A DNA stretch of 51,950 nucleotides from a virus. Taxonomy: Duplodnaviria; Heunggongvirae; Uroviricota; Caudoviricetes. Of this stretch, positions 42,001-48,000 are shown in pieces. How positions within the stretch are numbered: position 1 is the stretch's first letter; each line of letters starts with the position of its first letter. The DNA is taken from positions 1-51,950 of the IMG/VR virus record IMGVR_UViG_2909303794_000011; one strand, 5' to 3'. A program made the position numbers.

Positions 42001-45000
42001 TTGCTTAACGCGCAATAAAGAAATGTAATAAACGCATGAACATAGGAAATCGAGTCAGACAACTTCGCCAGGCGAAGAACATGAAAATCGCCGATCTAGC
42101 TGAAGCAATAGGAGTGGATGCGGCGAATATCTCGCGCCTGGAAACAGGTAAGCAGAAACAATTCACTGAGCAAGCCCTGAGTAATATTGCCAGGAGCTTA
42201 GGTGTTGATATTGCTGATCTCTTTACCTCAGACGTCAAAAGTAATACTGTATGTAAAAACAGTATTAGTGAGGATGTTGCGCAGGTGAAGGATGTATTCC
42301 GTATTGAAATGCTGGATGTCAGTGCCAGTGCGGGAAATGGCCTTATCCAGGGCGGTGATGTCATTGATGTGATTCATGCCATTGAATACAGAACTGATAA
42401 TGCTGTATCGATGTTTGGCGGACGACCAGCCAATCACATTAAAGTTATCAACGTTCGTGGGGACAGTATGTGTCCAACCATTGAGCCAGGAGATCTCATC
42501 TTCGTTGATGTCAGTATCAATCAGTTTGATGGAGATGGTATCTATGTATTTGGTTTTGATGATAAAATTTATGTCAAACGACTGCAAATGATACCTGACA
42601 AACTACTGGTGATTTCTGATAACCAGATTTACCGTGAATGGGGAATTACCAGCGAAAATGAACACCGGTTTATGGTCTTTGGAAAGGTCTTAATCAGCCA
42701 GTCACAAACCCTTAAGCGACACAATTAACCCTTACCTCCTCATCAATTAGCCACCCGAAGGTGGCTTTTCATTATCTATTAAATTGCATATCTCGCAATA
42801 AAACACTTGCATAATGCGCAACTTCATTTTATCTTTCTTTCCAGACCAACAAACAAGGTACTAACAAAATTTGGTTGTAACACGGCGTATGGCACATGCG
42901 TCGTTAGCGGTCTGGGGACGTTAAAGGGGACAATCCACTCCTTGCTCGGGCAAACAAACCAGGTAGCCGGAATGTGCAAGTCAATGATGATGCTGATAAG
43001 ACGCCTAACCAGCGTGGCGATTCGGTTTGACGCCTGGGAAGAGACCAGGGTGCAACGATGAGGGCATTTATGGAGCCGCGACAAAGTGTGGTGCCGTAAC
43101 TGGCTAAGTGCTCTCAGCGTTGTGGTAATCCGCGAAATGGCGCGGCGGTAAGTATGGCGGGGTTACTCTTTCCCCGTTGAGGACACCGGATTGTCAGGTT
43201 GACCATACGCCTGAGTGACAACCCCACCACAACAGCCACTGCTTTGGAGGTACCAGTTTGTACACTTGCTTCCGGCTGGTACCGCTCTTTTTACAAAACA
43301 GAGAAGAGCATCACCGGACGACGGGCTCATAACCCAATCCATCCGGGCGGCTGCCACCGCAGGTGTTCTTCTCTGTTTTGTGGAGAAACTAACCGACCTT
43401 GCAGGGTCGATATGATGAGGAGCAGCAAAATGGCTAGTGAACGCAGTACTGATGTGCAGGCATTTATCGGGGAGCTGGACGGCGGCGTATTTGAAACCAA
43501 AATCGGCGCAGTTCTAAGTGAAGTCGCTTCCGGTGTGATGAACACGAAAACCAAAGGGAAGGTCTCACTCAATCTGGAAATCGAACCGTTTGATGAGAAC
43601 CGTGTGAAAATCAAACACAAACTCTCATATGTTCGCCCAACTAACCGCGGGAAAATTTCCGAAGAAGACACCACCGAAACGCCGATGTATGTCAATCGCG
43701 GTGGTCGCCTGACTATTCTGCAGGAAGACCAGGGACAATTACTGACTCTTGCCGGTGAACCTGACGGAAAACTCCGCGCAGCTGGTCGTTAATATCGTTT
43801 TTAATAAACTGATTATTTATCTCATCACTGAATATCTTTATATAGTGAGGACTTATTATGTCTCAGAACTTAGACGCAACCGCAATTAATCAAATCCATG
43901 CCCTTATTTCTGCTCAGGGTGTTAATGAAATTATCAGTAAGATTGGTGCCGATGCTGTGGCATTGCCTGAGAATTTCCGCATTCATGATCTGGAAAAATT
44001 TAATTTAAATCGCTTCCGTTTCCGTGGTGCGCTTTCCACTGCCAGCATCGATGACTTTACCCGTTATTCTAAAGATCTTGCAGATGAAGGCACCCGCTGC
44101 TTTATCGATGCCGATAATATGCGAGCCGTCAGTGTGCTTAACCTGGGTACTATTGATGAACCAGGTCACGCAGATAACACCGCCACTCTCAAACTGAAAA
44201 AGACAGCACCGTTCTCTGCTCTGTTGTCTGTTAATGGCGAGCGTCATTCCCAGAAGTCACTGGCAGAATGGATTGAAGACTGGGCCGACTACCTTGTGGG
44301 CTTTGATGCTAATGGTGACGCTATTCAGGCAACAAAAGCGGCTGCGGCTGTCCGTAAAATCACGATTGAAGCAAACCAGACCGCTGATTTTGAAGATAAT
44401 GACTTCAGCGGCAAACGCTCCCTGATGGAGTCTGTCGAAGCGAAAACCAAAGATATTATGCCAGTGGCATTTGAATTTAAATGCGTTCCGTTTGAAGGCC
44501 TGAAAGAACGTCCGTTTAAATTACGCCTCAGCATTATTACTGGCGATCGTCCTGTACTGGTTCTGCGCATTATTCAGCTGGAGGCGGTGCAGGAAGAAAT
44601 GGCTAACGAATTTCGTGATCTGCTTGTTGAGAAATACAAAGACAGCAAAGTAGAAACCTTTATTGGTACTTTCACCGCCTGATTTCATTACTGCAAATGC
44701 CCCTGCGGGGGCATTTATGGAAACGTAATTAACTCAATAATCGCCGGATGGTGAGGGCTTACTTTTACCCGAATTCAGCGCGGTGCAGCGCATATAAAGT
44801 GGAGAACGAAATGTCATTTATTAAAACTTTTTCCGGGAAGCATTTTTATTATGACAAGATAAATAAAGACGACATCGTGATTAACGATATCGCGGTTTCC
44901 CTTTCAAATATCTGTCGCTTTGCAGGACATCTTTCACACTTCTACAGTGTCGCCCAGCATGCGGTGCTTTGCAGCCAGCTGGTGCCGCAGGAATTTGCTT

Positions 45001-48000
45001 TTGAAGCGTTAATGCATGATGCAACAGAAGCGTATTGCCAGGACATTCCCGCACCACTGAAACGCCTTCTTCCTGACTATAAACGGATGGAAGAAAAAAT
45101 AGACGCCGTAATCCGTGAGAAATACGGGTTACCCCCGGTTATGAGTACACCCGTGAAATATGCCGATCTCATCATGCTGGCAACCGAACGCCGCGATCTC
45201 GGGCTTGATGATGGCTCTTTCTGGCCTGTACTGGAAGGCATCCCGGCAACAGAGATGTTCAACGTGATTCCACTGGCACCGGGCCATGCCTACGGGATGT
45301 TTATGGAACGTTTTAACGATTTATCGGAGTTACGCAAATGCGCATGAATGTTTTCGAAATGGAAGGGTTTCTTCGCGGGAAATGTGTACCGCGAGATCTG
45401 AAAGTGAACGAAACAAATGCTGAGTACCTGGTACGTAAATTCGACGCGCTTGAAGCTAAATGTGCGGCACTGGAAAACAAAATAATACCAGTGTCAACTG
45501 AACTGCCACCAGCAAATGAAAGTGTTCTGTTATTTGATGCTAATGGAGAAGGCTGGCTGATTGGCTGGCGTTCTCTCTGGTACACCTGGGGACAAAAAGA
45601 AACCGGAGAATGGCAGTGGACATTTCAGGTCGGGGACCTTGAAAACTTCAATATCACTCACTGGGCAGTAATGCCCAAAGCGCCGGAGGCTGGAGCATAA
45701 TGACCACATTTACCAATAAAGAACTGATTAAAGAAATCAAAGAACGAATCAGCAGCCTAGAGGTTCGAGACGATATTGAGCGCCGTGCTTATGAAATTGC
45801 TCTGGCATCGCTGGAAGAGGAGCCGGTGGCATGGCTGCATTCAGACAATGGCTTAGGTATTCCGGCAATAACCAGGAGCAAAAACATTGCTGACAGTTGG
45901 TTATCAATGGGCTGGTATGTTCAGCCGCTATATATAGCCAAGCCAGTACTGGTGGTGCCAGATGCTCGTCCGTCTTTAAATAATGGCATAGTCGGTTTTG
46001 ATGAAGGCTGGAACGCCTGCCGCGCCACCATGCTTCATGGTGCCAAACCTGTAAGCCAGACTTACAAGTTGAACAAGCTGTCGGGCAACTCTCCGGTAAC
46101 TCAGGATGGTTGGATAAGCTGTAGTGAGCGAATGCCGAACGATAAACAGTATGTTTGGTGTTGGGGTAAGTCTTACGGCTGGACTGAGTGCGATACCTTC
46201 GAAGGGTATTACGATTGGTCGAGAAACAAATGGTGGGCAGTTACTGACGATGGGGAAGAACCGGCATCGAAAGTAACCCACTGGATGCCGCTACCGGAGC
46301 CACCGCAGGAGGTGAAGTAATGAACAACTTAATGACAACTAAACAAGTCGCCGACTTCTGTGGCGTTTCAGTATCGACCGTTCTTCGCTGGAACAGCGTA
46401 AACAGGAGAACTGGCCAGAAATACAGGCCTGACTTTCCAGATCCTGATATTAAATCCTGCCCAAATAAATGGGCATCACGCAAGATATACAGGTTTGCTG
46501 GAGTTATTGAGTGATGGGTATTAGCTCATATCAGAACTAATACCCATCAATGACACAGAGCCAACTACCCACCCTGTGTCAGGGGCTAACTTTTAACACC
46601 ATAATTCACCGCTAGATAAAAACTGTATTGCATTGCACGAGCGGCGCAGCATTATCAGTTAGAGTGTCTTTACCTTGTTAGGCTCCACAGTTCGCACTGT
46701 CCAACGCCTGTCACTTTCACACGCTGCGCCTTCGAGAATATTCATTTAATCGCTGATAACGAACATCTTGCTCCAGTTGTGGAGCAGCTTGAACAATTTG
46801 AAGCAAGCATTGCCCCAACTCTCGAGGCCTCCAGTGTTGTTCGGCAATCACGGCATTCAGCAGGGATAGAGCGTCCGCAGGATATCGGCTGCAAATATCT
46901 GATTCTAGCAAAAGGCGAACGTCGTAGCTAAGGTGTTCGAGCGGTTGCAGCCAGTCCTGCACCACTGCCAAAGCCGCCGGAAATTCACCTCGGGCAGCAA
47001 TCACCATACGAGTCAACGATTCGGATATGCGTGGGGTGGCCAAGTTGCGGGACTTTGGCCAAACCTGTTGCCAAAATGGCTGGACACGATTTTTCCAATA
47101 CTCCTCGCGCTGATCGCCCGCACCTTCAAGTGCCTGGTATAACGCCTGCGCGGCTACCTCCAGACCTTCTTGTGGAAGAGCACTAATTGCCGTTCGGAAC
47201 TCCTCCACGGTATATCCCTCGGTAGGGCCCAGAGCTGCATAAGTCAGGAAAATAGCGAATTGCTGCCGGTGCTCGCCAAGATCAGAATAGTGATTGGCGC
47301 TCTCCAAAAAATCTGACTTGAAAGCTATCAGCAACGGTTCATACAGGCGTGGCGACCAGAGGAAGCCTTCCCACACAGCTTTTGCTTCGACGGGATTACT
47401 CCAAGCAAACAAGGGCAATAGATACTGTTCGGTCCAAGGTCGATCTACGCGAAAAAATGCGATCAGCCGCGACCCCAGCAACACCCGACCATGGCGGAAT
47501 AGCTCTATCTGTACATTACACAATTTGGTGAAAAGTGTTTTCAATTCAACAGGAAGCAAATCATTGTCATTCGGGTTCTGTTTGAACCATAGGGTGATCA
47601 GTGATTGCGTGACATGCCCAATGGGATGATTGATCGCCGTAGAAACAGGATCATAGGTCTCAATTCCGTTTCGAATGGTGCTAGACTCTGGGCTTGTTTC
47701 TATCATCAGAACCCGACGACAAAGGGCCAGTAGAATCTCCTCGTGGCAGAGGATGGTCTTCGAAGCCTCCTCCATCCACCAAGTGACAGCGTGGGAAATC
47801 TCCTGAAGTACTGCGTCAGGCATGTCAAGCACCAACGGTGCGGCGTACCGCCACGAACGCAAAATCATCCCTGGTTCAGCCCAAGTCTGCAGAGCTTCAC
47901 GCCACCGACCAACAGGCCACACATCATCTTGTGATAGTTTACGTAACGCATACAGACTGTGAAAAAAGCGCGTACGGCAAACATCACTCCAAGTGTCCTC

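Follow-up and report, generated by a model that had tools for sequence, protein, structure and literature searches.

We analysed a window of 51,950 nucleotides (nt) from a Caudoviricetes virus (IMG/VR record IMGVR_UViG_2909303794_000011; coordinates refer to the whole window), with a focus on six plus-strand genes at 43430-46514. By sequence comparison, this region is the already catalogued yfdP-yfdQ-yfdR-yfdS cassette of lambda-like Escherichia coli prophages. It forms the early-left (pL) operon of a lambdoid prophage of the e14/SfV/mEp460 type. We assign a probability of about 0.5 to a phage role in stopping or redirecting the replication of the host chromosome early in lytic growth, through the DnaA-binding protein YfdR. 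The sole new item here is an unannotated structured leader RNA upstream of yfdP, which is conserved across Enterobacterales. The leader RNA and the genes of the operon are as follows.

43281-43398, plus strand: structured leader RNA of about 118 nt, basal stem of about 22 base pairs (bp) and two apical hairpins; the element stops 32 nt short of the yfdP ATG (folding, covariation)
43430-43792, plus strand: yfdP, 120 amino acids (aa), YfdP family PF27127 (118/120 residues identical to K-12 YfdP; phrog_204)
43858-44682, plus strand: yfdQ, 274 aa, DUF2303 by Pfam (270/274 identical to K-12 YfdQ; PDB 9o7m, E-value = 6e-45)
44811-45347, plus strand: yfdR, 178 aa, HD-domain phosphohydrolase (178/178 identical to K-12 YfdR)
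45338-45700, plus strand: yfdS, 120 aa, C-terminal DUF551 (118/120 identical to K-12 YfdS; phrog_583)
45700-46320, plus strand: 206-aa mosaic protein, YfdT-like N-terminus and C-terminal DUF551 (BLASTP, Pfam)
46320-46514, plus strand: excisionase (xis), 64 aa, last gene of the operon (phrog_1553, E-value = 8e-36; weak HTH_17/MerR matches)

The yfd cassette as an early-left operon

BLASTP comparison with the proteins of prophage CPS-53 (KpLE1) of E. coli K-12 MG1655 gave protein identities of 98% for YfdP, 99% for YfdQ, 100% for YfdR and 98% for YfdS, a level at which a chance match is no concern. An original prediction, made from the sequence alone, had likened a run of genes of 120, 274, 178, 120 and 206 aa at 43430-46320 to the yfdP-Q-R-S cluster of CPS-53. 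The BLASTP result bears out this match, and the sizes, order and coordinates are exact, with the sixth gene (xis) lying just past that interval. The length of YfdP is counted from an ATG with a GAGGAG Shine-Dalgarno sequence. Its assignment to PF27127 comes from a cluster representative of 98% identity carrying the precomputed family, the Pfam scan of YfdP itself giving no match at E-value≤0.01; 437 cluster representatives are related to YfdP at E-value≤1e-3. YfdQ matches DUF2303 (PF10065) over residues 7-272 with 310.5 bits (cut-off 26.6). The 206-aa protein, predicted to be DUF551-like, does carry this domain (PF04448; 64.9 bits, E-value = 1.3e-17), and the match of YfdS is marginal (22.6 bits against a cut-off of 22).

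The gene order and sizes of yfdP-Q-R-S are the same in K-12 CPS-53, which differs from the window at both ends. The repressor, the operators and the leader RNA are lost in K-12, where a deletion joins the yfdO iterons to a point about 25 nt before the yfdP ATG. At the other end, the fifth gene is yfdT (101 aa; K-12 locus 11874-12179) instead of the 206-aa DUF551 gene, and the K-12 operon ends with TorI instead of the different 64-aa excisionase found here. The similarity between the 206-aa protein and K-12 YfdT is confined to residues 1-42 (95% identity in BLASTP), and YfdT may be a recombinant or truncated relative of the 206-aa protein. This relationship is of interest because YfdS and YfdT are interchangeable in the published assay described below.

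The elements that accompany these genes in the plus-strand region are as follows.

42036-42728, plus strand: CI-type repressor with helix-turn-helix (HTH) and S24 autopeptidase domains (Pfam Peptidase_S24, E-value = 6e-19; HTH_3/HTH_26)
42749-42766, plus strand: terminator-like hairpin 3' of cI (terminator scan)
42784-42821, plus strand: putative left operators (oL) and pL, two TTGC-N7-GCAA palindromes (42784-42798 and 42807-42821) flanking a CATAAT -10-like hexamer (42810-42815)
44697-44714, plus strand: GC-rich hairpin (ATGCCCC-TGC-GGGGGCAT) within the 128 nt that separate yfdQ from yfdR (sequence reading; below the T-run criterion of the terminator scan)

The label "early-left operon" given in the original prediction is right, since a CI-type repressor precedes the genes on the same strand, as do operators in common with the right operator (oR): the oL-type TTGC-N7-GCAA palindrome recurs at oR (42001-42015) in a repeat search. 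The cro gene and a cII-like gene (Phage_CP76/YmfL) are divergent, on the other strand, and the operon terminates in an excision gene, as an early-left operon should. We infer pL, as a consensus promoter scan called no plus-strand promoter at 42784-42821; the operators and the CATAAT hexamer make oL/pL plausible. A Shine-Dalgarno sequence is present for all six genes. yfdR and yfdS overlap by 10 nt, and yfdS and the 206-aa gene, like the 206-aa gene and xis, by 1 nt as TAATG. The last four genes of the operon show translational coupling. The hairpin at 44697-44714, as read from its sequence, may attenuate expression between the P-Q pair and this coupled R-S-DUF551-xis block.

YfdR and host chromosome replication

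YfdR exhibits the HD metal-binding set H50, H69, D70 and D119, plus E73 and D78, in the pattern HDxxExxxxD. It aligns with the solved HD protein Atu1052 (PDB 2gz4) with an E-value of 1.3e-13 and with the H, HD and D ligands in register, which upholds its earlier description as an HD-domain protein. Each of the six residues is retained in 50 or 51 of the 51 distinct homologues compared, which come from different species and range from 43 to 100% identity. The HD motif H...HDxxExxxxD...D is common to YfdR, Atu1052 and YfbR, but YfdR scores below the curated YfbR cut-offs (Pfam PF12917, 24.3 against 25.9; NCBIfam NF003009, 19.9 against 122). By these models, YfdR is a predicted HD hydrolase and not a YfbR equivalog, and its RefSeq name, 5'-deoxynucleotidase, follows the K-12 gene, not the YfbR family models.

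The functional data come from the K-12 genes. Noguchi and Katayama (2016, PMC4776307) recovered the yfdQRST genes in multicopy through their suppression of hda-185. According to the same study, multicopy yfdQRS or yfdQRT inhibits initiation at oriC in the wild type and in hda, dnaAcos, seqA and diaA mutants; the phenotype needs yfdQ, yfdR and either yfdS or yfdT, yfdP being dispensable. Purified YfdR binds DnaA domain I in a Phe46-dependent manner and moderately displaces DiaA and DnaB (PMC4776307). The original prediction had described these genes as being of unknown function, which does not hold for YfdR, a published DnaA binder with a RefSeq enzyme name. Its suggestion of "counter-defence or host-takeover" functions agrees, for host takeover, with the YfdR-DnaA data (PMC4776307); for counter-defence there is no evidence here or in the literature found.

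These data fit the following course of events. Inactivation of the CI repressor would start transcription at the operator-flanked pL. The transcript would cross a leader of about 600 nt containing the conserved folded RNA and would then express YfdP, YfdQ, YfdR, YfdS, the second DUF551 protein and Xis. YfdR would bind DnaA domain I at Phe46 in competition with DiaA and DnaB, as published for the identical K-12 protein, and YfdR with YfdQ and YfdS or YfdT would block initiation at oriC. The gene content of the early-right operon agrees with such a role. It comprises Rha/Ash, one HTH_36/DnaD_N-like initiator (38953-39771, minus strand), PerC, a LexA-DNA-binding protein, KilA-N, DUF968 and Q, and no helicase loader or helicase was recognised among the early-right and replication-region open reading frames (ORFs) scanned. 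The phage therefore probably relies on host DnaB/DnaC loading. With a single initiator and no recognisable loader, interference with the DnaA-DnaB contacts of the host would plausibly serve phage replication.

Several observations weigh against a role in host replication. The replication phenotype stems from multicopy over-expression only, not from phage infection or induction, and the displacement of DiaA and DnaB by YfdR is only moderate. Deletion of yfdQRST has no effect on initiation under normal growth, and the authors allow for an over-expression artefact; YfdQ, YfdS and YfdT exhibit no tight binding to YfdR or DnaA (PMC4776307). The distribution of the genes points the same way. Since a viral-contig scan with a YfdQ alignment yielded 99-100% identical E. 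coli loci only, we used a one-genome-per-species scan, which provided 80 cross-species loci, 78 of them uncut. YfdP-YfdQ is the invariant pair in this sample: yfdQ comes immediately after yfdP in all 78 of the uncut loci, whereas the next position holds a YfdR-like ORF in 56/78; a CI-like gene lies upstream in 57. Because the invariant core is YfdP-YfdQ, and YfdP is unneeded for the phenotype, the primary function of the module may lie elsewhere. As all functional data are from over-expression of the K-12 remnant, we do not raise the probability of the host-replication role above about one half.

A different view of YfdR takes it to be mainly an enzyme, a phosphohydrolase for deoxynucleoside monophosphates (dNMPs) or other nucleotides that reshapes pools or destroys a nucleotide signal, with DnaA binding being secondary. 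The retention of all catalytic HD residues in 50/51 homologues at 43-100% identity argues for selection on catalysis, and the RefSeq/PHROGs naming as 5'-deoxynucleotidase or dNMP phosphatase and the likeness to Atu1052 point in the same direction. On the other hand, the YfbR-model scores are under cut-off, no physiological substrate is known, and YfdR's nucleotide affinities fall far below YfbR's and its function is elusive according to Zimmerman et al. 2008, insofar as that work is cited in PMC4776307. We regard a mainly enzymatic YfdR as rather unlikely.

The binding of DnaA by YfdR to block oriC initiation has functional analogues in lambda P and Bacillus subtilis SirA (PMC4776307), neither of which exhibits a sequence relationship to YfdR. 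SirA uses Phe49, which is equivalent to the Phe46 used by YfdR (PMC4776307). Lambda P binds DnaA domain III and doubles as a helicase loader, whereas YfdR is an HD hydrolase that needs YfdQ and YfdS or YfdT in vivo.

A conserved leader RNA upstream of yfdP

The region 43270-43440 folds with a minimum free energy of -67.4 kcal/mol (z = -4.2), with stem arms at 43289-43313 and 43365-43389. In 44 of 81 closely related viral loci, homology to the window starts at about 43225-43250, from which we conclude that the leader element travels with yfdP. The structure extends far beyond these close relatives. In the 220 nt that precede yfdP, the longest helix measures 24 bp at the median over 76 cross-species loci, against 14 bp in control windows. 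The stem sequences are wholly different among Escherichia, Serratia, Yersinia, Proteus, Providencia, Morganella, Rahnella and Xenorhabdus, with pairing kept, and across these genera the stems end in ...GUGUGGAG(A/U)A.

Covariation supports the same structure. RNAalifold applied to a MAFFT alignment of 21 sequences gave 35 pairs, 11 of them compensatory. In this alignment 97.4% of positions predicted to pair are paired, against 92.0% in shuffles (reached in 0/500) and 39-58% with the partners slid, and 12 pairs are changed on both sides against 5.9 in shuffles (again 0/500). A covariance model scored 98-133 bits on the plus strand and 31-43 bits antisense. Weaker matches to the model (about 14-35 bits), ending 9-49 nt before yfdP, were found in Yersinia, Serratia, Rahnella, Symbiopectobacterium, Morganella, Proteus and Providencia. 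In 48 distinct sequences, 96.7% of cells are paired against 39-54% with the partners slid, in an alignment that was fitted to the model and is biased toward the structure. The same 48 sequences exhibit 148 G-U pairs and 11 A-C pairs. This difference between the strands points to an RNA on the strand of the operon; a DNA cruciform or an antisense RNA was rejected on the G-U excess and because the covariance model scored the plus strand three times as high as the antisense.

Two other candidates were also rejected. An intrinsic terminator does not fit, as the U-run is 5' of the stem and a 3' U-run is found on neither strand. A put-like pair does not fit either, the leader motif being single copy in the window. 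The element nevertheless resembles the HK022 put RNA and the RNase III hairpin of the lambda N leader in being a structured cis RNA in an early-left leader, here in a phage without an obvious N gene. The put RNAs are about 70 nt long with two stem-loops and form a putL/putR pair, with putL just after PL (PMC9378689). Unlike them, the leader RNA is single copy, of about 118 nt, with a long stem and a three-way junction, and lies about 470 nt from the putative pL. Our best guess is that it would serve as an RNase III site or as a control element of the leader of some other kind.

No match to Rfam 15 was found at E-value≤1 in 41500-46800. The leader RNA occurs in 2775 of the 5426 complete E. coli genomes, without RNA annotation among the records listed, and it is also found in mEp460, cdtI, SfV, SfII, ST64B and LLS. 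In the e14 prophage of a K-12-like strain, the leader RNA (86.8% identity) lies immediately before xisE and within an annotated ORF, ymfH (locus 2832-3143). The RNA element may thus have been miscalled there as an ORF.

The conservation of the RNA together with the invariant gene pair suggests a tentative alternative to the role centred on YfdR and DnaA, to which we give some weight, if clearly the smaller one. Here the true core would be the structured leader RNA with YfdP and YfdQ, a unit invariant across the prophages of Enterobacterales. The RNA would be a new cis element replacing N/nut in these N-less phages (for instance a switch operated by RNase III, or a signal for processive anti-termination or anti-Rho activity), and YfdP and YfdQ, with YfdR, would draw host DnaB/DnaC away from DnaA-oriC and towards the origin of the loader-less phage.

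YfdP and YfdQ

The predicted structure of YfdP (predicted local distance difference test score, pLDDT, of 69) consists of one long helix and three long strands. No solved fold matched the predicted structures of YfdP or YfdQ in a search whose results also lacked PDB 9o7m itself, and a PDB sequence search gave no match for YfdP or the 206-aa protein. The YfdQ homologue in PDB 9o7m ("YfdQ Protein"; E-value in the feature list) has 36 chains in the entry, which hints at a large homo-oligomer; we found no paper describing this entry.

YfdP and YfdQ occupy the position of the lambda and P22 recombination genes, and it is conceivable that they form an unrecognised recombination module, for instance an annealase with its partner, replacing the Rec genes absent from this phage class. 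None of the six operon proteins matched an N-type antiterminator or a Rec module (exo/bet/gam, erf/abc, recET) in Pfam, NCBIfam or PHROGs, so that the operon offers no known recombinase. The prophage is Chi-rich, as in the "no Rec module" LLS group, the many chains of 9o7m could reflect a large oligomer, and deletion of yfdQ is reported, via PMC4776307, to cause sensitivity to methyl methanesulfonate (MMS). A hidden annealase in YfdP/YfdQ is nevertheless unsupported, and of the explanations discussed here we consider this the most improbable.

The same kind of phenotype bears on the proposal that the cassette genes benefit the lysogen through stress tolerance and not lytic growth. K-12 deletions of yfdQ and yfdS are sensitive to H2O2, besides the MMS sensitivity of the yfdQ deletion (Wang et al. 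2010 and Rooney et al. 2009, to the extent that they are cited in PMC4776307), and part of the cassette is found in 3911 of the 5426 E. coli genomes, degraded prophages included. In an intact prophage such as this one, however, operators under CI control precede these genes, which should not be expressed in the lysogen. As the repressor and leader are deleted in K-12, the stress phenotypes may be specific to the cryptic remnant, and a benefit to the lysogen appears quite unlikely.

Distribution and mosaicism

The 3911 genomes in which Megablast detected some part of the cassette make up about 70% of those searched; at least 80% of the cassette is present in 1566, with the genes annotated as yfdP, yfdQ, yfdR and so on. 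The cassette is also present in the isolated phages mEp460, cdtI, SfV, ST64B, 1720a-02, PhiR40_1 and Stx2c phages. In mEp460, cdtI, SfV, ST64B and LLS it directly follows the repressor, as in the window, with a mosaic immunity region and mosaic distal genes.

The boundaries of this mosaicism can be followed in 86 viral loci selected with YfdQ, almost all of which are 99-100% identical E. coli relatives and which inform on mosaic boundaries, not on diversity. yfdP, yfdQ and yfdR are present in 81-82 of them, yfdS in 50, the full-length 206-aa gene in 5, and the cI type of the window in 28. From the presence counts across loci, the conserved core is P-Q(-R) and the distal part is mosaic; the slot of the 206-aa gene, full length in just 5/86 loci, is a variable position.

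Downstream of the cassette, a 1275-aa Dsr1 defence-associated sirtuin (46717-50544, minus strand; NCBIfam 2054 bits, PADLOC Dsr1 2731 bits) lies between the excisionase and the integrase (50727-51950, on the strand opposite to the operon and cut by the window end). In strain JMF1, the stretch between the cassette and the integrase is instead occupied by an anti-phage dCTP deaminase, and none of the 86 related loci carries Dsr1 at the xis-int position. The stretch therefore resembles a slot in which defence genes are exchanged.

This neighbourhood has a bearing on whether one or more of the cassette proteins could be an anti-defence factor. Such a function would suit proteins that are small, acidic and expressed early, and it would agree with the variable, mosaic nature of the distal part and with the defence genes in the adjacent xis-int slot (Dsr1 here, dCTP deaminase in JMF1). 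Direct evidence is lacking, and no paper found on YfdQ, YfdR, DUF2303 or DUF551 reports this role; the P-Q-R core is highly conserved and not fast-evolving, and the five cassette proteins have no match to PADLOC defence-system models. We therefore consider an anti-defence role improbable.

Other features of the window

Chi sites (GCTGGTGG) are over-represented in the window, with 16 sites against 2.2 expected, 13 of them on the minus strand and all within 24352-45513. The LLS group has been described as Chi-rich, with "no Rec module" and a single replication gene, and yfdP, yfdQ and the HD gene are listed for it among the frequent early-left genes without an assigned function (PMC12315714). 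The window is alike in having no canonical Rec module in its early-left operon, a single initiator-like replication gene and abundant Chi.

Downstream of Q and a DNA methylase, a 638-aa protein (31487-33403, minus strand) exhibits DUF1737, SASA (sialate O-acetylesterase) and DUF6645 domains. We take it to be a NanS-p type esterase; such esterases are typical of the late regions of Stx phages.

Significance

The genes themselves are already known, being named yfd prophage genes, with a published DnaA-binding activity for YfdR. They form a very common early module, the YfdP-YfdQ core of which matches no known fold and is, like the leader RNA, worth further work. The leader RNA could explain how the early-left transcript is controlled in lambdoid phages that lack N.

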